Shown here: positions 2 through 12,465 of the stretch, in pieces
Numbering within the stretch: position 1 is the first letter of the stretch
How the letters are laid out: every line of letters starts with the position of its first letter
Source of the DNA: a virus
Lineage: Duplodnaviria > Heunggongvirae > Uroviricota > Caudoviricetes
Direction: 5' to 3' (one strand)
DNA length: 12,652 bases
Virus record (IMG/VR): IMGVR_UViG_2660238360_000005
The notes under the pieces: generated by a model
Databases searched by the model: none
The model's input: only the letters and a program-made list of their open reading frames with translations
Told to the model about the DNA's origin: nothing
Program-made: the position numbers and the translations under genes

Positions 2-1297
2 TTAATTTTTCATTGCTTCGTTATGGGGCATGGTTGGGGCAAACTCGCTTAACTGTGTATTTAACAAAGCTACCTGTGCATTATTGTTTTCAGACATCCA
101 TTTTCCGTATACCTGAAATACCATTTGCGCATCTGCATGGCCCATCTGGTTTGCTATAAATGCCGGGTTAGCACCAGCTGTCAGCGACCAGCAGGCATAA
201 GTATGTCTCGACTGATATGATTTTCGATGGCGGAGTCCGGCACGTTTTATCGCTGCGTCCCACATCTGCCTTATTGAGTCAACGGTAAAATGGTCACCAT
301 AATTTTTTACTCTCGCTGACACTTCAGGTTGAAAAACAAAGGTGCATTTATGTTTTTCTGTTCTGCCATACTCTCTGAGGTGAACATCAATGATATGCTC
401 TTTGCTCAGTCTCGTTAATGTCATCTGACTCCGGAGAGCGTCGATTGCTGGCTTAATAAGATGAATGACCCGATTGGTTCCCGCCTGTGTTTTTGGTACC
501 GTGAAACGGTCTTTTGCTAAATTTCTCCTGATCATCATTGTTCCATTTTTCAGATCTATGTCCTCCCATCCAAGTGCACACAGCTCACCAGGGCGAACGC
601 CAGTATAAACAGAAACACACCATAAATTTTTGGCTTGCTGATTTCTGCACGCATCGATAAGACGGATGAATTCCTCCCGCGAAAGAGGATCCGGAATGGT
701 TCTTGATTCCTTTAATGGCGAGATCCCCTTAAACGGGTTATCTGCCAGGTAACCGTTATCAACACCAAACTGGAACACGGCGTTAAGATTTGTCATGTAA
801 TTATTTACAGTTACAGCCGATCTCCCTGGTTGTGTAACAATATAGTTACTTTTGGGGATCTGGTATCCAGTCAGTAGCTCTTTACGAACCTCCAGTAATT
901 TTTCTTTATTAATCGATGAGGCAAGATTTTTTTCACCGATTATGCTCAGGATATTTTTGATGACGGCACGGTATGTGTTGAGTGATGTTTTTGCGACTTC
1001 AGTTTCTTTCAGTGCCAGAAATTTTTCAGCCAGTTCTTTTATGGTTAAATCTTGTCGGGTCTCACCAAATTTTTCCAGATTGCGTGAGGAGGGAAACTGT
1101 TTTGCATAGTCGAAAACACCAGTTTTTATTGCGTAACAAACAGAGGCGCGTAGCTCACCTGCAACGCGCCTGTTTTTTGCTGTGTCAGGAACCCCCAGGT
1201 TTTCCCTGACTCTTACGCCTTTATAAACAAACCAGATACGTAATTTCCCTCCATGGTTTTCCACGCCTGTCGGATATTTCATTTCAATTTCTCTCAT
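2..1297 (-). CDS. int: Phage integrase, tyrosine recombinase family
   Basis: 431-codon ORF ending at the window edge. C-terminal region has tyrosine-recombinase box motifs (..SRHTYACWSL.. and ..MGHADAQMVFQVYGKW.. with the presumptive nucleophile Tyr). Sits immediately downstream of a small excisionase-like ORF in the usual xis-int order. The second ATG at 1282 (MKYPTGV..) is the more likely true start. Confidence 0.9.
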   Translation of the reverse strand: MREIEMKYPTGVENHGGKLRIWFVYKGVRVRENLGVPDTAKNRRVAGELRASVCYAIKTGVFDYAKQFPSSRNLEKFGETRQDLTIKELAEKFLALKETEVAKTSLNTYRAVIKNILSIIGEKNLASSINKEKLLEVRKELLTGYQIPKSNYIVTQPGRSAVTVNNYMTNLNAVFQFGVDNGYLADNPFKGISPLKESRTIPDPLSREEFIRLIDACRNQQAKNLWCVSVYTGVRPGELCALGWEDIDLKNGTMMIRRNLAKDRFTVPKTQAGTNRVIHLIKPAIDALRSQMTLTRLSKEHIIDVHLREYGRTEKHKCTFVFQPEVSARVKNYGDHFTVDSIRQMWDAAIKRAGLRHRKSYQSRHTYACWSLTAGANPAFIANQMGHADAQMVFQVYGKWMSENNNAQVALLNTQLSEFAPTMPHNEAMKN

Positions 1298-1640: not shown

Positions 1641-4112
1641 TTAAGAATCAGCCTGACTCGGGATCAGTTTTTGCCAGATAACTGAAACGTATTTTGCCTG
1701 GTAACGGGCGTCATCAAGTGCATTATGGCGCTCACCTTCGAATGGAATAGCCGTTCTGGCATCGAAGTCTATGGCTTTCCCCAGCTCAACGATTGTGCGT
1801 ACATCGCGATCGTTGTAGTAACGCCACGGGCAGGGGATCCCCTGCCGTTCGTATGAACGGCGCAAAATCGTGTTGTCGAAGTTGGCTCCATTTCCCCAGA
1901 CCTGAACAAAAAATTCACCGGAGTTTTCGTCGATAAATTCCCACAATTGTAACAGTGCATCATCTAACGGGATTTCATCGGTCATAATGGCAGATTGCGC
2001 TTCGCGTGATTGCTTAAGCCACCATTTAATGGTGTCCCGATCAATGACTCCGCCAGCAGTTTCCAGATCGATAGTCTTACTAAATTCCGGTCCCATATCT
2101 CCGGTTTGCGGATCGAAAAATATTGCACCTATTGAGATGATCGGGGCATCAGGATTTTTTCCCATGGTTTCAAGGTCGATCATTAGATGGTCACACGTCC
2201 TGCTGGTGGATGTGATTTCTTGATGACCGTTCACCTTAATTGAGTGATCTGCCGTCTCGCCAGTTTCATTATCGCTATCGTGATGCTGATTGCCGCCAGT
2301 GTTCTCCTTGTGTGGATGTTCAGCGCCTTCCATTTCCTCCGGATCATCTTCCTGAACTTCAATCTGATACTCTTCATCGAATGTTTCCTGGTATGTTGCG
2401 TCGCCCATTACCGCGCCACAATCAGGGCAGTTGCCGCCGCCGGTCTGACCGCAGGCGGTGCAGACTTTTTCCACTTCCTGTTGCGCCACTGATTCAGGCT
2501 GTTTCGTTTCTGGCTCGTTTTGTAACGCATTTGGGCTGTTTTGTTCCGCTTTTTGGTAGTTCCGTTCCGATTCATGCTGGTTCTGGTTCACAGAATCGCG
2601 GGTCTGGATCCCCTTAACCCATTTCGGATCATTCGGGTCACTAATCCCTTCAACAAATTCACCACGTGATGCAGCAAGCAACTTATCGGCGTCAGGCTGG
2701 ATGATATTGGCTGCCTGCATAATTTTGTTTACTTCGTCAGCGGTAACTTTTATCGGCTCTGGTTGTTCTGAATCTTCAGCGGTATCTACATTTTGCGGTA
2801 AGCCCGTGTATGTGCCATTTTTTCGGGCAAAATATTCTTCTTTTGTGATTTCAGTGGCGCCAGCAGCCAGTGCCTTATCCAGACCAGAAAGTTTGTTTGC
2901 GCGACCGTATTTTTCTCCGTCCTTATCTGCGAAGAGGAAATAGAACGGCCCCTCACGCTCTACAGATGGTTCAGCTTCCGGCGCGGTTTCATTTTTTGGG
3001 ATATCAGATACCTCAGTTTCCACTGCATCAGTTTGTGTTTCTGATGACTGGAGAACATCAACAGTGCCCAGGTCTGTTTCTTCATTCTCAAACACGCCCT
3101 TTGTCGTCAGGTATTCGCAGATATATTTGTTCAGTGCTACGGGATCTTTGTGAATGTCGATCGGACGCTCACGGACAAGGCCAAAAATAGTTTGGCGGTC
3201 GTAGCGAAGGGCATCAGGCTGTTTGCGCATTGATGCCGAGATACGCTTCCAGTCTTCGCGGTCGTTGTCGATAACTTCATTTTTTGCCCAGCGATGGATG
3301 CTGCCGTCAATGTTTCCGGCATCCACATCACCAGGCCAGAGAGCGTAGGCCAGTTCGTCATCCAGTGTTTTCCATGTCTGCTTGTATTCGCGATGAATGG
3401 CAGCAATGACCGGGCTGATTTTTCCTGTTGAATTTTCAGTGTACTGTTGATTGGCTCTGGCGCGGGCGAGATCAACAACAGACGTGTATTTTCCGGTTTC
3501 CTTGCGTTCACCTTCGCGACGTTTTTTCCAGATGCGCATCTCTGCCTGAATTTCGGGCCATTTAGCACCAGGAATACATTTATGCTTAACCCACCCAATG
3601 GCGTGCAACTTAAGCTCCGGATACATGGCGTTAACTTCTGGCATTTTCATCAACGCTTCAACGATATGTCCGTCGAATGTTGCCATGTCTTCCTGCAACA
3701 ATTCCTGTGCGCTAATAACCATATCAACGGTGATGTTTTCACATGTGTCGAACTTAACCATGACAGCGTTCTGTACTTCAGGGGCCAGCTTGTCAAAAGT
3801 GACGTTCATCGGATCGGATTCAGTCTCAACCGGGACAAAAGAAGCAGACTCCTCATCCCAGCGGTTTTCCTGCATATATTCAGCATCCCATGAATCGAGG
3901 GCAGGGCGGGGTATGCCAGGTTTATCCTCGCAGACAATAAATTTATAAGCGCAGTCCTGAGCAGCCGGATAATGTTCCAGGAATTGCCAGTGAAATTTTG
4001 CTCGAGCACGGCGTTCGTCGCCAGCTTCAATGGCTGTGGCTACAGCCACAGCGCCTTCTTCCCTTGTTGCCAGTTCGTCAGGAATAGCGGCGCAAATAAA
4101 GACTTTACTCAT
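1641..4112 (-). CDS. RecE-like exonuclease (exodeoxyribonuclease VIII-like) with C-terminal DEDDh 3'-5' exonuclease domain
   Basis: Long ORF; the track starts it at a TTG (4148), but ATG at 4112 has a GAGG about 9 nt upstream. C-terminal ~190 aa (about 1641-2230) carry DnaQ-like motifs I (MIDLETMG), II (GNGANFDNT) and III (RHNALDDARYQ). Central acidic low-complexity region with a C-x2-C-x7-C-x2-C zinc-ribbon motif (CTACGQTGGGNCPDCG, about 2405-2465). N-terminal RecE-family resemblance is recalled from memory, not verified. Confidence 0.7.
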   Translation of the reverse strand: MSKVFICAAIPDELATREEGAVAVATAIEAGDERRARAKFHWQFLEHYPAAQDCAYKFIVCEDKPGIPRPALDSWDAEYMQENRWDEESASFVPVETESDPMNVTFDKLAPEVQNAVMVKFDTCENITVDMVISAQELLQEDMATFDGHIVEALMKMPEVNAMYPELKLHAIGWVKHKCIPGAKWPEIQAEMRIWKKRREGERKETGKYTSVVDLARARANQQYTENSTGKISPVIAAIHREYKQTWKTLDDELAYALWPGDVDAGNIDGSIHRWAKNEVIDNDREDWKRISASMRKQPDALRYDRQTIFGLVRERPIDIHKDPVALNKYICEYLTTKGVFENEETDLGTVDVLQSSETQTDAVETEVSDIPKNETAPEAEPSVEREGPFYFLFADKDGEKYGRANKLSGLDKALAAGATEITKEEYFARKNGTYTGLPQNVDTAEDSEQPEPIKVTADEVNKIMQAANIIQPDADKLLAASRGEFVEGISDPNDPKWVKGIQTRDSVNQNQHESERNYQKAEQNSPNALQNEPETKQPESVAQQEVEKVCTACGQTGGGNCPDCGAVMGDATYQETFDEEYQIEVQEDDPEEMEGAEHPHKENTGGNQHHDSDNETGETADHSIKVNGHQEITSTSRTCDHLMIDLETMGKNPDAPIISIGAIFFDPQTGDMGPEFSKTIDLETAGGVIDRDTIKWWLKQSREAQSAIMTDEIPLDDALLQLWEFIDENSGEFFVQVWGNGANFDNTILRRSYERQGIPCPWRYYNDRDVRTIVELGKAIDFDARTAIPFEGERHNALDDARYQAKYVSVIWQKLIPSQADS

Positions 4113-4204
4113 TTGTTTTAACCTCATGACAGATTTAAGGATGAACAAATCCCTGCCATTGCTGGCATATAAGAATGAAACCGGATATTTATTACGGAAC
4201 TGTT

Positions 4205-4581: not shown

Positions 4582-5148
4582 TATCGCGTCCTCAACAATG
4601 AATTTTGTGATGCAGTGCCTGGTGCCTCCAGGTGACGTTAACCAGTTAACAATTAACGCCGGATACAGAGAATCCACCCATAACACTGTTTTTGGTTTTA
4701 ACTGTTCCGCGTGCGCTCAGCCGCATTCACCACATCACAAAATTCACTTTAAAAAGGGCGGCAGAGCAGTCACGGAGTAAAACTGATACCGCCAAACGTC
4801 ACCAGAAAATTGATAACAGAGGGCGTTGCAGCGGGGTTGTCACTTAAGCGTATGGTCAACCTGACAACCCGGTGTCCTCAACGGGGAAGAAATAACCCCG
4901 CCATACTTACCGCCGCACCATTTCGCGGGTTGCCACAACCGGAAGCGCACGGTCGACGAAAATTTAACGACAGGCTATCTATGAACCAGCTACCTCGCCG
5001 TGCGCTTTCGCGTTATGGTCTGACTTTTCAGGGAAATATCCTTTCAGTAAACTGTCAGTGCCGGATGCTCACCCGTGTCCGGCGCACGCACTCCACCTCA
5101 CCCGTGGAGAACTCCTTAATTACCAACCTTAGCTTCGTTGGTTAGCTA

Positions 5149-5974: not shown

Positions 5975-6613
5975 TTAAATATCTTGTTGAATTTTAAAGC
6001 ATACGCCCAATATGCAAGATAGATCATCCAGCATAATTGAAGGGTAGCGAGGATTCGTGGGGACTAAAAGAATATCCGGCCCTTCTATCTCCAGTTTACG
6101 AATGACAGGTGTTGTGGTCCCTTTGGGTAAGGCAAGGACAATATTTCCTGGTTGTACGGTTCGATCGGGATCAACAAAAACTGTTGAACCATTTGGGATG
6201 GAAACTCCCCCACCAGATGTTGACATACTGTCACTCTCTAGAACAACTGCAAAGGTATTGACCGGGATTTCTCCGACAAGCTGCACACAAGAGGTTATTG
6301 AGGAATTTTTCATATAATCACTCCAGCTTGCTGCCTGCTGAAGTGATAGTAGCGGAACCGTTTTTATCGGCGGTAAAGATAGATCAAGCGAATCACCTGT
6401 ATTTAACTCTCCTCCATTAAGAAGCCAATTTTCGTTTACTTTCAATATTTTTGCCAGTGAACTTATGTAACGCGAGGACGGCGCTCCTCCACCGTTCATC
6501 CATTGACTTACGGAGCCTTTTGATGCGCCAGTGCCATTGACAAGGTCTTTGCCTTTCAGGTTTAGCGCATGCATACGTTGGGTTATGCGTTCAGATATAG
6601 TTTGCTTGCTCAT
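5975..6613 (-). CDS. CI-type prophage repressor (N-terminal XRE-type HTH, C-terminal S24 LexA-like peptidase)
   Basis: 212 aa. HTH segment ..LKGKDLVNGTGASKGSVSQWMNG..; C-terminal ..ESDSMSTSGGGVSIPNGSTVFVDPD.. (Ser) and ..PVIRKLEIEGPDILLVP.. (Lys) fit the S24 Ser/Lys dyad. Divergent from the cro-like gene. No SD upstream of the ATG, compatible with a leaderless PRM-type transcript. Confidence 0.9.
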   Translation of the reverse strand: MSKQTISERITQRMHALNLKGKDLVNGTGASKGSVSQWMNGGGAPSSRYISSLAKILKVNENWLLNGGELNTGDSLDLSLPPIKTVPLLSLQQAASWSDYMKNSSITSCVQLVGEIPVNTFAVVLESDSMSTSGGGVSIPNGSTVFVDPDRTVQPGNIVLALPKGTTTPVIRKLEIEGPDILLVPTNPRYPSIMLDDLSCILGVCFKIQQDI

Positions 6614-6676
6614 GTTTTGATTTTAAAACACAGATGGTTTTGTTTCTTGACTTTCTTTGGTTTTGATTATTAAACT
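6614..6676. promoter_or_regulatory. Divergent promoter-operator region with three operator-like sites at 23-bp phasing
   Basis: GTTTTGATTTTAAAAC (6614-6629), GTTTTGTTTCTTGAC (6637-6651) and GTTTTGATTATTAAAC (6660-6675) start exactly 23 bp apart. Rightward promoter candidate TTGACT (6647-6652), 18-nt spacer, TAAACT (6671-6676). Confidence 0.55.
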
Positions 6677-6704
6677 TTTGACGTTCAGTTTTATGGAGCG
6701 ACTC

Positions 6705-6935
6705 ATGAAAAAATCAGAAGTATTAGGCTATTTTGGCGGAGTTGTTAAAACAGCCGCAGCTCTAGGAACGTCAAAAACCACAGTCAGCATGTGGGGGGAA
6801 GAGGTTCCGTGGAAATGGGCGTTGCTAATTCAGGCAGTCACTGCCGGGGCGCTCAAATATGAGTTACACATACCGACGGTTGTCATTCCCGGTTCTGATC
6901 ATAATCCGCCTTCTAACCAAGGGGGGGATTCATGA
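6705..6935 (+). CDS. Cro/YdaS-like HTH regulator (76 aa)
   Basis: ATG at 6705 with GGAG 7 nt upstream; HTH-like segment GGVVKTAAALGTSKTTVSMW; divergent from the repressor; stop overlaps the next start (ATGA at 6932-6935). Confidence 0.8.
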   Translation: MKKSEVLGYFGGVVKTAAALGTSKTTVSMWGEEVPWKWALLIQAVTAGALKYELHIPTVVIPGSDHNPPSNQGGDS

Positions 6936-7357
6936 AAATCAAGCATGAACACATCCGCATGGCGATGAATGCCTGGGCGCATCCGGACGGCGAAAAAGTA
7001 CCGGCTGCGAAAATTACCAAAGCGTATTTCGAGCTGGGAATGACGTTCCCGGAACTGTATGACGACAGCCATCCGGAAGCCCTGGCTCGCAATACCCAGA
7101 AAATTTTCCGCTGGGTAGAGAAAGACACCCCTGATGCAGTTGAAAAAATTCAGGCGTTGTTACCAGCGATCGAAAAGGCAATGCCACCTTTGCTGGTGGC
7201 CAGAATGCGCAGCCACAGTTCAGCTTATTTTCGGGAGCTGGTGGAGACGCGGGAGCGACTGGTGAGAGACGCTGATGATTTTGTCGCAGTGGCAATCGCC
7301 GGTTTCAATCAGATGAACCGTGGTGGCCCGGCAGGAAATGCTGTGGCAGTACATTGA
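6932..7357 (+). CDS. CII/YdaT-like regulatory protein (141 aa)
   Basis: N-terminus MKIKHEHI.. as I recall for YdaT/phage CII-family proteins; translationally coupled to the upstream cro-like gene, matching the racR | ydaS-ydaT layout of Rac-like prophages. Confidence 0.7.
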   Translation: MKIKHEHIRMAMNAWAHPDGEKVPAAKITKAYFELGMTFPELYDDSHPEALARNTQKIFRWVEKDTPDAVEKIQALLPAIEKAMPPLLVARMRSHSSAYFRELVETRERLVRDADDFVAVAIAGFNQMNRGGPAGNAVAVH

Positions 7358-7428: not shown

Positions 7429-8499
7429 ATGGCTAACGCCTGGCTCAGATTATGGCATGACATGCCAAATGACCCTAAGTGGCGAACAATTGCCAGGGTG
7501 TCAGGGCAGCCAATTGCAACAGTGATGGCAGTGTATATCCACCTCCTGGTGAGCGCGTCACGAAATGTCACGCGAGGTCACATTGATGTCACGACAGAAG
7601 ATTTGGCAAGTGCGCTCGACGTGACAGAAGAGGTAATTGATTCAATTTTGCAGACGATGCAGGGGCGGGTACTTGATGGTGATTTAATCACTGGATGGGA
7701 AAAACGCCAGGTGCTGAAAGAGGACAACGGCAATATTTCGCAAACCGCAAAATCTCCGGCAGAGCGCAAGAGGGCGCAGCGAGAGAGGGAAAGAAAGCGG
7801 GAACAAAATGGCGATTGTCACGGCGCGTCACGAAATGTCACGCACATGTCACGACGAGTCACGACAGATAAAGATACAGATAAAGATACAGATCAAGAAG
7901 ATCAAAACACTATGGTCCATGGCGTAAAAAACGCCACGAACCAGGCAGGGGATGTTCAGACCGTCAATCCTGGTCAGCCAGCAGGCACGACACCGGAAGC
8001 CGATTCAGCGTATGCGCTGAAAGCCGATTCGGGCGCTGTGCAGCAGGTGATGACCCCAAGGCCGGAGCAATCACACCAACTGCAGCAGCCTGAAGCCGAT
8101 TCCGCCATTCAGCGGGAAGCCGATCGGGTAGTCCCGGAAAACACCGGGCTGTCTGTGGGACGAGTGGATTATCCGGATGTGTTCGAACAGGTCTGGCGGG
8201 AGTACCCGTTGCGTGCCGGAGCAAACCCGAAGAAATCCGCTTTCAGTGCCTGGAAGGCCAGATTACGCGAGGGGGTGCCACCAGAGGCCATGCTGGATGG
8301 CGTGAGGCGTTACGCAAGATACTTGGCGGCTACCGGGAAAACGGGAACGGAATTTGTTCAGCGAGCGACGACGTTTTTTGGACCGGACCGGAATTTTGAG
8401 AACCCCTGGTTGCTCCCGGTAAGCGGCACGAACAACCAGCGTTGTGTGAATCATATTTCTGAACCGGATACCGAAATTCCACCGGGCTTCAGGGGGTAA
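7429..8499 (+). CDS. Putative replication initiator (lambda O-like role) with internal origin-like iterons
   Basis: 356 aa from ATG 7429 (GAGG 5 nt upstream). Follows cro/cII-like genes as in lambdoid replication modules. Coding sequence contains two phased iteron arrays plus an A/T-rich tandem repeat. No helicase-loader gene follows. Confidence 0.6.
   Translation: MANAWLRLWHDMPNDPKWRTIARVSGQPIATVMAVYIHLLVSASRNVTRGHIDVTTEDLASALDVTEEVIDSILQTMQGRVLDGDLITGWEKRQVLKEDNGNISQTAKSPAERKRAQRERERKREQNGDCHGASRNVTHMSRRVTTDKDTDKDTDQEDQNTMVHGVKNATNQAGDVQTVNPGQPAGTTPEADSAYALKADSGAVQQVMTPRPEQSHQLQQPEADSAIQREADRVVPENTGLSVGRVDYPDVFEQVWREYPLRAGANPKKSAFSAWKARLREGVPPEAMLDGVRRYARYLAATGKTGTEFVQRATTFFGPDRNFENPWLLPVSGTNNQRCVNHISEPDTEIPPGFRG
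7553..7593. repeat. Iteron array 1 (4 x GTCAC[G/A] at 10-11 bp phasing)
   Basis: GTCACG at 7557, 7567, 7588 and GTCACA at 7577. The 21-mer gcgcgtcacgaaatgtcacgc (7553-7573) recurs exactly at 7823-7843. Confidence 0.6.
7817..7905. repeat. Iteron array 2 (5 x GTCACG) followed by A/T-rich tandem repeat; candidate ori
   Basis: GTCACG at 7817, 7827, 7837, 7848, 7858 (one per helical turn), then tandem 12-mer AGATAAAGATAC x2 (7866-7889) and two GATC sites (7891, 7900). Confidence 0.55.
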
Positions 8500-8539: not shown

Positions 8540-8962
8540 GTGGCAAAAGTTTTTACACAAGAAGAGCGAGAAAAAATTAAAGGGCAGGTTGTTGAACTCG
8601 TACGCCAGAGTGGGCGTGAGACGTTACGGCAACTGGAAGTCAAGACAGGTGCGACAAGATATCTGATGAGCGTTCTCGCAAGAGAGCTGGTTGCCAGCGG
8701 CGATGTATACAACTCCGGCTACGGGTTATTCCCCTCTGAACAGGCGCGTAAGGACTGGCAAAACGCCCGCAAAAAACTCTCGAGGGCAAAGGTGAAGAAA
8801 CCTGCTGTGGTTGATCCGGACCTTATCTGGTCATCACCTGACGGAGAAATACGTCGCTACGACAGTCGCCTAAACATAATCTGTCGCGAGTGCCGGAAGA
8901 GTGAAGCTATGCAGCGTGTACTGGCTTTCTATCAGGGTAATTTTCAGGAGGCGGTACTGTGA
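8540..8962 (+). CDS. Hypothetical protein (140 aa)
   Basis: GTG start at 8540 preceded by GGAGG (8531-8535); no family recognised. A 16-bp copy of its own RBS region is repeated at its 3' end. Confidence 0.55.
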   Translation: MAKVFTQEEREKIKGQVVELVRQSGRETLRQLEVKTGATRYLMSVLARELVASGDVYNSGYGLFPSEQARKDWQNARKKLSRAKVKKPAVVDPDLIWSSPDGEIRRYDSRLNIICRECRKSEAMQRVLAFYQGNFQEAVL

Positions 8963-10567: not shown

Positions 10568-10624
10568 GACTGCGGGTGCTTGAGGCTATCTGTCTCAGGC
10601 ATGAACACCAAAAGGCAGATAGAG

Positions 10625-10692
10625 AAAAGCCCCAGTTAACATTACGCGTCCTGCAAGACGCTTAACATTAATCTGAGGCCATATCTATGCGA
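10625..10692 (-). ncRNA. sok: Putative Sok-like antisense RNA (boundaries approximate)
   Basis: Minus-strand promoter-like TTGACC (plus 10724-10729), 18-nt spacer, TAATCT (plus 10700-10705) inside the mok-like frame would start an antisense transcript near 10692 covering the mok-like start and leader, as in hok/sok loci. 3' end not defined. Confidence 0.3.
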
Positions 10693-10746
10693 CACATAGA
10701 GATTAGCCTCTTACGGACCGAAAGGTCAAGGAGAAGCAGGCTATGA
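10687..10746 (+). CDS. mok-like short coupling ORF (19 codons)
   Basis: ATG 10687; its TGA stop (10744-10746) overlaps the hok ATG (10743-10745). Much shorter than the mok frame as I recall it from plasmid R1, so the assignment is tentative. Confidence 0.35.
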   Translation: MRHIEISLLRTERSRRSRL

Positions 10747-12455: not shown

Positions 12456-12465
12456 NNNNNNNNNN
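12456..12465. other. Assembly gap (10 N)
   Basis: Literal run of n characters; flanking sequences belong to unrelated genes. Confidence 1.

Follow-up and report, generated by a model that had tools for sequence, protein, structure and literature searches.

Why does a phage replication gene carry two separate arrays of the same short repeat within its coding sequence, and do these arrays act as DNA or merely follow from the protein that they encode? We addressed this question in a 12,652-nucleotide stretch of DNA (the window) from a virus of the Caudoviricetes, IMG/VR record IMGVR_UViG_2660238360_000005, which is part of an E. coli lambdoid (Rac/Qin-like) prophage. One of its open reading frames (ORFs), referred to below as the initiator gene, contains the hexamer GTCACG in two arrays, and the second array adjoins an A-rich tract. 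Comparison of the window with related genes suggested, with a probability that we put at about 0.75, that these repeats are the replication origin of the phage, located within the gene that encodes its own initiator.

DNA signal or coding by-product

Both arrays lie entirely within the initiator gene, in the same orientation and ~230 bp apart (Table 1). The original prediction, made from the letters of the window, described four GTCACG in array 1 and five in array 2, at one repeat per helical turn. The spacing of 10-11 bp agreed with the helical periodicity in both arrays, and all five copies in array 2 were exact; in array 1 three were exact and the fourth read GTCACA. The 21-bp duplicate, also predicted, was recovered as GCGCGTCACGAAATGTCACGC, identical in its two occurrences; identity stops at both ends, and the second copy falls within array 2. 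Two features were absent from the original prediction, an inverted hexamer past array 1 and an inverted repeat past the A-rich tract. The window contains 13 copies of GTCACG, against 5.2 expected, and clusters of at least four GT[CG]AC sites were found in none of 2000 Markov-randomised windows. When the complete 46-kb genome of the near-identical phage Tritos was scanned for GTCAC/GTGAC clusters, only arrays 1 and 2 were recovered.

One explanation for the arrays is that they merely follow from amino-acid motifs needed by the protein (ASRNVT, VT, SR), or from a recent internal duplication, and have no function at the DNA level. In agreement with this, both copies of the 21-bp duplicate are read in frame as ASRNVT, and the amino-acid motifs at the arrays are conserved. 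The reading frames of the hexamers told against it. Successive copies occupy frames 2, 0, 1, 0 in array 1 and 1, 2, 0, 2, 0 in array 2. Because the spacing is 10-11 bp, all three frames are used, and the hexamer is read as V-T (GTC ACG), x-S-R (nnG TCA CGn) or x-H-x (nGT CAC Gnn); it is therefore not an amino-acid repeat. Recoding experiments in silico pointed the same way. When the protein was kept fixed and its codons were resampled from the usage of the window, 1.4 copies of GTCAC[GA] were expected against 9 observed, and 0 of 20000 trials reached 9 (maximum, 6). Permuting the synonymous codons of the gene itself gave 2.4 expected copies, with a maximum of 9. The codon-shuffled control proposed alongside the original prediction thus came out in favour of repeats at the DNA level.

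Codon choice across relatives provided a further measure. Of 58 related genes gathered from other species, the 20 that share the GTCAC hexamer were aligned by codon. Their hosts include, among others, Escherichia albertii, Serratia, Rahnella, Pseudomonas, Bordetella, Chromobacterium, Stenotrophomonas and Entomomonas, with a genomic GC content of 34-63%. The codons of array 1 were frozen in this alignment: S44 was TCA in 19/20 genes, V47 GTC in 20/20, T48 ACG in 20/20, G50 GGT in 20/20, H51 CAC in 19/19 and V54 GTC in 20/20. The same was true of array 2 (H131 CAC, 18/18; S141 TCA, 20/20; V144 GTC, 20/20). At the inverted copy, V65 was encoded by GTG in all 16 genes with a valine at this position, and the first codons of the A-rich tract were fixed as well (D147 GAT, 18/18; K148 AAA, 17/18). 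Mean normalised codon entropy was 0.15 in array 1 and 0.18 in array 2, compared with 0.84 for 53 conserved residues outside the arrays (Mann-Whitney p 6e-7 and 1.6e-4, respectively), where nearly every synonymous codon is used. A subfamily of relatives in which the hexamer is CGAACG served as an independent replicate and gave an entropy of 0.25 against 0.78, with N45 encoded by AAC, E48 by GAA and R49 by CGC in 15/15 genes each. Kinship of the aligned sequences could inflate the counts of frozen codons, but it cannot explain the contrast between frozen and free positions, because the saturated control codons were taken from these very sequences.

Collectively, the frozen synonymous codons, the recoding control and the use of three frames indicated that the repeats are selected as DNA, and that the arrays are a DNA-level signal rather than a by-product of coding. 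The view that they are a mere consequence of an amino-acid repeat was rejected on these three grounds. It also leaves unexplained why synonymous codons are frozen at the hexamers only, why array 2 encodes a disordered linker and why the hexamer is kept across hosts with such different GC content; we consider it hardly credible.

A neighbouring segment behaved differently. Positions 7755-7808, a stretch of ~50 nt that precedes array 2, lack T altogether (AT skew 1.0); the segment that they encode, AERKRAQRERERKRE, is basic. Its codons vary freely among relatives, which places the constraint on the protein and not on the DNA.

Two-array layout and A-rich tract in relatives

By our own count, both arrays are present in ~44 of 53 sampled genes; two genes (L035 and L037) have array 2 only, and a few others have no obvious repeat. 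The possession of two arrays, regarded as unusual in the original prediction, is so relative to lambda but is the norm in this initiator family. Copy number varies from 2 to 6 in array 1 and from 2 to 7 in array 2, which nearly all relatives possess. In genes of the GTCAC type the hexamers recur at ORF offsets of ~128, 138, 148 and 159 and then of ~388, 398, 408 onward, with the inverted copy at ~192; most homologues of this type have GTGAC at the same offset as the inverted hexamer of the window.

Distant homologues, from Beta- and Alphaproteobacteria, Acidobacteria and one Planctomycete metagenome-assembled genome, contain no GTCAC but carry another hexamer at the same two places. This was GTAACG in four genes (L022, L024, L032, L040), GTGACG in one (L056) and CGAACG(C) in ~18. 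The hexamer type always matched between arrays 1 and 2 of one gene, indicating that it switches in concert in both arrays between subfamilies.

The arrays of relatives differ by blocks of 21 nt, or seven codons, so that the reading frame is kept. Seven extra codons were found in array 1 of an Escherichia albertii gene (L004) and of an E. coli gene (P0020), and in array 2 of the E. coli group; the 21-nt in-frame insertion in array 1 of L004 raises the number of hexamers from four to six. Arrays of one gene often share exact stretches of 16-21 nt, spacers included; in homologues other than the window gene these measure 16-18 nt. A scan of IMG/VR, in which the best 80 matches all had an identical N-terminal domain and which therefore shows only the stability of the hexamers in the population, found all hexamers intact in 76/80 viral contigs. 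The Erwinia phyllosphaerae gene (L023) departs from the usual spacing: its hexamers are partly 5 bp apart (GTCACGTCACGTCAC) in both arrays, at ORF offsets 159-169 and 411-421, compared with 10-11 bp elsewhere.

Whatever the iteron type, array 2 is always directly followed by purine-rich GATAAA/GATACA (sometimes GAGAAG) repeats. In the window these form the A-rich tract, where Tandem Repeats Finder reported 2.9 copies of ACAGATAAAGAT at 7864-7898; this accords with the tandem 12-mer and the two GATC sites (7891 and 7900) of the original prediction. The tract has a GC content of ~0.30-0.33 and an AT skew of 0.5-0.6, and it is the least stable 40 bp of the gene (nearest-neighbour dG -44.7, against a window mean of -55.8 with a standard deviation of 4.0); only 0.4% of window positions are less stable. 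A general Dam/SeqA role for its GATC sites was considered and rejected, since these sites are not conserved in relatives.

The inverted repeat just past the tract folds as a single strand with a dG of -8.7 (z -2.7). It scores as terminator-like on the minus strand, the tail being the T-rich complement of the A tract, and it sits in an insert that is absent from more distant relatives. It may belong to the origin. Promoter and terminator scans gave nothing above chance. The consensus DnaA box has one exact match in the window (TTTTACACA, 8551-8559), which lies at the start of the DUF977 gene, ~650 bp past the A-rich tract and outside the arrays.

Table 1 Features of the initiator gene and its surroundings (window coordinates, except for the last row)
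Feature	Position	Strand	Description
Integrase	2-1297	-	
Large protein with 3'-5' exonuclease domain	1641-4148	-	'exonuclease VIII' in near-identical records
DicF small RNA	4756-4807	-	Rfam, 76.7 bits
CI-like repressor	5975-6613	-	
cro	6657-6935		
cII/YdaT-like gene	6932-7357		
Initiator ORF, 356 aa	7429-8499	+	N-terminal winged helix (~aa 1-95, modelled), disordered linker, C-terminal helical domain, DnaT-like tail
21-bp duplicate, exact	7553-7573 and 7823-7843	+	two iteron units, seven codons, ASRNVT
Array 1	7557-7593	+	GTCACG at 7557, 7567, 7588; GTCACA at 7577; spacing 10, 10, 11; encodes aa 43-55
Inverted hexamer	7620-7625	-	CGTGAC on + strand; 27 bp past array 1; encodes D64-V65-T66
Array 2	7817-7863	+	GTCACG at 7817, 7827, 7837, 7848, 7858; spacing 10, 10, 11, 10; encodes aa 130-145
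Purine-rich A/T tract (A-rich tract)	7864-7910	+	directly after array 2; A27 C7 G7 T6; proposed DNA-unwinding element
Inverted repeat	7913-7925/7931-7943		13-nt arms, 5-nt gap; just past A-rich tract
DnaT-like tail, C-terminal 24 aa	8425-8496	+	aa 333-356 (...VNHISEPDTEIPPGFRG); resembles extreme C-terminus of E. coli DnaT
DUF977/Ren-like gene	8540-8962		next gene after initiator
sok antitoxin RNA of hok/sok locus	10574-10745	+	Rfam, 106.7 bits
DUF968 gene			also in window
ydaU repeats and A-rich tract	L062 3472-3625 = NC_000913.3 ~1421471-1421624		E. coli K-12 Rac

Initiator protein and proposed roles of the arrays

Several observations identify the gene as a replication initiator. The protein matched the PHROGs 'replication initiation protein' family with an E value of 1.7e-256, and the ORF is labelled elsewhere as 'phage replisome organizer', 'DNA replication protein O' or 'primosomal protein I'. 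The gene order, cro followed by the cII-like gene and then the initiator, is that of the lambdoid initiator slot. In public data the family comprises 2050 clusters at 50% identity (E up to 1e-3; 931 at 1e-10) and is carried by at least 547 viral contigs. Seven E. coli phages, induced or sequenced, Tritos and Evi among them, match a 1.3-kb region around the arrays at 97-99% identity, and a full-length match to this region was found in 1646 of 5426 complete E. coli genomes. Tritos has no second replication gene in its complete genome, neither a helicase nor a loader, and no P-type loader gene stands next to the initiator in the window, where the neighbour is the DUF977/Ren-like gene. Relatives have a variety of downstream genes, including lambda P-like (L005), DnaC/IstB-like, DnaB, DUF6475, DUF4942 and DUF977. 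The wider window contains DicF and hok/sok, which are typical cargo of Qin/Rac-like prophages, and ten consecutive N at 12456-12465. A search of plasmids returned 11 records, mostly very large or chromosome-sized, and was uninformative on autonomous replication.

The N-terminal domain was modelled as a DnaD/RepA_N-like winged helix. In the AlphaFold2 model (pLDDT, the predicted local distance difference test, 81 for this domain) helices span aa 2-14, 16-25 and 29-45, a loop aa 46-55, two further helices aa 56-63 and 67-77, and a beta hairpin aa 78-87. Residues ~135-224 are mostly disordered in the model and are followed by the helical C-terminal domain. The region encoded by array 1 is the end of a helix and the loop that precedes the helix-turn-helix; array 2 together with the A-rich tract encodes aa 130-161, predicted to be disordered (pLDDT below 50), between the N- and C-terminal domains. 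In relatives the same N-terminal domain is joined to different C-terminal domains, including the DnaT single-stranded DNA-binding domain PF17948. A shared N-terminal domain combined with varied C-terminal domains and downstream genes is the pattern expected of an origin-binding initiator that would hand over to host-specific loading machinery.

The extreme C-terminus of the protein matched positions 156-179 of the 179 positions of NCBIfam NF002770 (E 0.0015) and DnaT chains in PDB (E 0.003-0.011). The same ending is found in E. coli K-12 YdaU and in several relatives that have unrelated C-terminal domains. The tail may plug into the host primosome, because the phage has no helicase-loader gene, and so link the initiator to it; a paper on the preprimosome states no role for the last 24 residues of DnaT.

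We infer a sequence of binding, opening and recruitment. The N-terminal winged helix would bind along one face of the DNA, where each helical turn presents one hexamer iteron. Array 2 and the adjoining A/T tract would form the core origin, in which an initiator oligomer on array 2 would destabilise the tract. The DnaD-like C-terminal domain and the DnaT-like tail would then bring in the host helicase-loading machinery, the phage providing neither loader nor helicase. Array 1 and the inverted copy at 7620 would be a conserved second set of sites for the same protein, ~230 bp upstream. Array 1 almost certainly binds the same factor as array 2, because selection on it at the DNA level is equally strong and its hexamers change in concert with those of array 2. 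The two relatives without array 1 argue that it lies outside the minimal origin, and their retention of array 2 fits array 2 as the core. Array 1 would most likely be auxiliary, raising local occupancy by the initiator or looping to array 2 to build a larger nucleoprotein complex. The core of the original prediction, iterons and an A/T-rich region inside a replication gene as in the lambda origin but with another repeat unit, was strengthened by the frozen codons, the concerted change of the hexamer, the adjoining A-rich tract and the position of the gene in the initiator slot.

Other points weigh against an origin bound by its own initiator. The recognition-position helix (aa 67-77) does not obviously vary with iteron type. 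The iterons, being inside the gene, are inherited with the initiator whatever binds them, so that covariation alone does not identify the binder. The N-terminal domain of DnaD is mainly an oligomerisation scaffold, and similarity of fold is thus no proof of sequence-specific binding. A Foldseek search with the full-length model returned nothing significant. We also considered strict helical phasing between the arrays and found no support for it: the distance between them is not an integral number of turns across relatives, and a rigidly phased loop is not favoured. No study of this origin or initiator family was found in the literature searched, many subscription papers being outside its coverage.

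The first two of these points would also suit arrays that bind a different factor, such as a host protein or the cII/YdaT-like or DUF977 protein, for regulation or another function in cis: co-inheritance of the arrays with the gene would follow from linkage alone, and the recognition-position helix does not visibly covary with the iteron type. The neighbouring genes, however, differ widely among relatives, whereas the arrays always accompany the N-terminal domain; the hosts span Gamma-, Beta- and Alphaproteobacteria and Acidobacteria, which makes a single host factor with changing specificity unlikely; and the arrays adjoin an A/T-rich tract, as in origins. Binding by another factor is improbable on this evidence. 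A less distant alternative retains array 2 and the A-rich tract as the origin and assigns array 1 to negative control, by autoregulation, titration of the initiator or handcuffing. A second, regulatory array is well documented in iteron plasmids, and the control iterons of P1 and F titrate the initiator or pair origins. Handcuffing is summarised in PMC5703833. Compatible with a brake are the position of array 1 in the 5' third of the gene, which is transcribed, its agreement with array 2 in sequence and orientation, and its dispensability in a few relatives. On the other side, a lytic or temperate phage benefits from rapid replication, copy control by handcuffing is a plasmid trait, and no promoter-like site above chance was found near array 1. 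Negative control by array 1 is possible, although we do not favour it over an auxiliary role within the origin; the sequence itself does not separate positive from negative action, and array 1 may be a helper (looping, occupancy) or, less probably, a brake (roadblock, titration, pairing).

Across iteron types the N-terminal domain is nearly constant, except for the loop encoded by array 1 and aa 65-66, encoded by the inverted copy. The loop (aa 44-55) is SRNVTRGHxDVT in the GTCACG type and SNATERGRTQ in the CGAACG type, and ACG is common to every iteron type, the three bases before it being variable. A speculative and rather doubtful extension is that the loop encoded by array 1 itself sets iteron specificity, with the site and its reader in the same nucleotides. 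If this were true, a change of iteron would alter the reader in the same stroke, and new origin specificities would have an inbuilt way to arise, as would incompatibility groups for replication among co-resident prophages.

Novelty and comparison with known systems

That an origin can lie inside an initiator gene is already known, and the protein is publicly annotated as a replisome organizer. Within the literature searched, the conserved two-array layout, with one array inside the coding sequence of the DNA-binding domain, appears undescribed, as do the concerted switching of the hexamer and the shared A-rich tract. Knowledge of the origin and its specificity types would improve the annotation of prophage replication modules, could help to forecast competition for, or sharing of, initiators between co-resident prophages, and would make it possible to design phage-derived replicons that are compatible. 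The locus would also be an unusually clean natural case of dual coding, in which the same DNA is constrained as protein and as a protein-binding array, measurable from frozen synonymous sites. A path by which a phage origin could engage the host primosome is suggested by the DnaT-like tail together with the lack of a loader gene in the phage.

The lambda origin lies in the middle of O and consists of initiator-binding iterons followed by an A/T-rich tract, the number of iterons varying between relatives; these are 19-bp imperfect inverted repeats in a single array, with six iterons in variants from Stx phages (PMC7466680). Similarly to lambda, the window has iterons inside the initiator gene, an adjoining A/T-rich tract and an initiator gene placed after cro and cII. 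Unlike lambda, it has a 6-bp core, direct repeats every 10-11 bp, and two arrays with one inverted copy, and no P-like loader gene follows, although the relative L005 has a lambda P-like gene. The Pfam family of lambda O (Phage_rep_O) gave no match at E up to 1 for the window protein or 19 relatives.

Judging from the model, the nearest structural analogue is a DnaD/RepA_N-type initiator and not lambda O. In RepA_N proteins of the pSK41 type, a DnaD-like N-terminal domain binds Rep boxes in the centre of the gene that encodes it, where they specify a linker that is dispensable (PMC5703833). The window protein would share with pSK41 Rep and pTZ2162 RepA an N-terminal domain of DnaD-like winged-helix fold, and the origin repeats are likewise central in the gene and encode the linker between two domains. 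It differs in its Gram-negative hosts, its location in prophages and the additional array inside the part that encodes the DNA-binding domain; no Pfam match to the RepA_N sequence family was found at E up to 1 for the window protein or 19 relatives. The window protein also shares with PF09681 (Phage_rep_org_N) the name 'phage replisome organizer'. In that family a low-complexity region after the N-terminal domain reflects direct repeats in the DNA that can act as an origin; the window gene has repeats and the low-complexity segment TDKDTDKDTD at the corresponding place, and these may act likewise. The N-terminal domain aligned with PF09681 end to end (aa 5-122 to positions 1-118 of 121), but its score of 12.7 bits fell far short of the 23.3-bit cut-off (E 0.13), and 1/20 members matched. 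Examples of this family are Gram-positive phage initiators, those of lactococcal phages and G38P of SPP1. To our knowledge, the two-array layout is not part of the PF09681 family description.

Another comparison is with ydaU of the K-12 Rac prophage. It occupies the same operon position, has the same A-rich tract (AATAAAGATACAGATAAAGATCT) in the linker-coding region after short repeats, and ends in the same DnaT-like tail (...PPGFRG). It differs in its unrelated N-terminal domain (DUF1376), in its ATGTTCAA-like repeat with four copies spaced 33, 33 and 12, and in the DnaC-like gene ydaV downstream. In agreement with this, BLASTP aligned the window initiator with YdaU only at the C-terminal tail and the linker, and Pfam DUF1376 was unmatched in the window protein. 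This suggests modular exchange at the A-rich tract, with the N-terminal domain and its iterons moving together. An active origin, oriJ, is reported for Rac (PMC3945230); it may lie at the ydaU repeat region.

Two separate clusters of one short repeat for one initiator have precedents outside this family. Phage P4 (ori/crr), plasmid P1 (incC/incA) and R6K have such pairs, the second cluster assisting or restraining initiation, and in all three the clusters flank the initiator gene or lie kilobases away. Here, by contrast, both arrays belong to the coding sequence and are translated as well.

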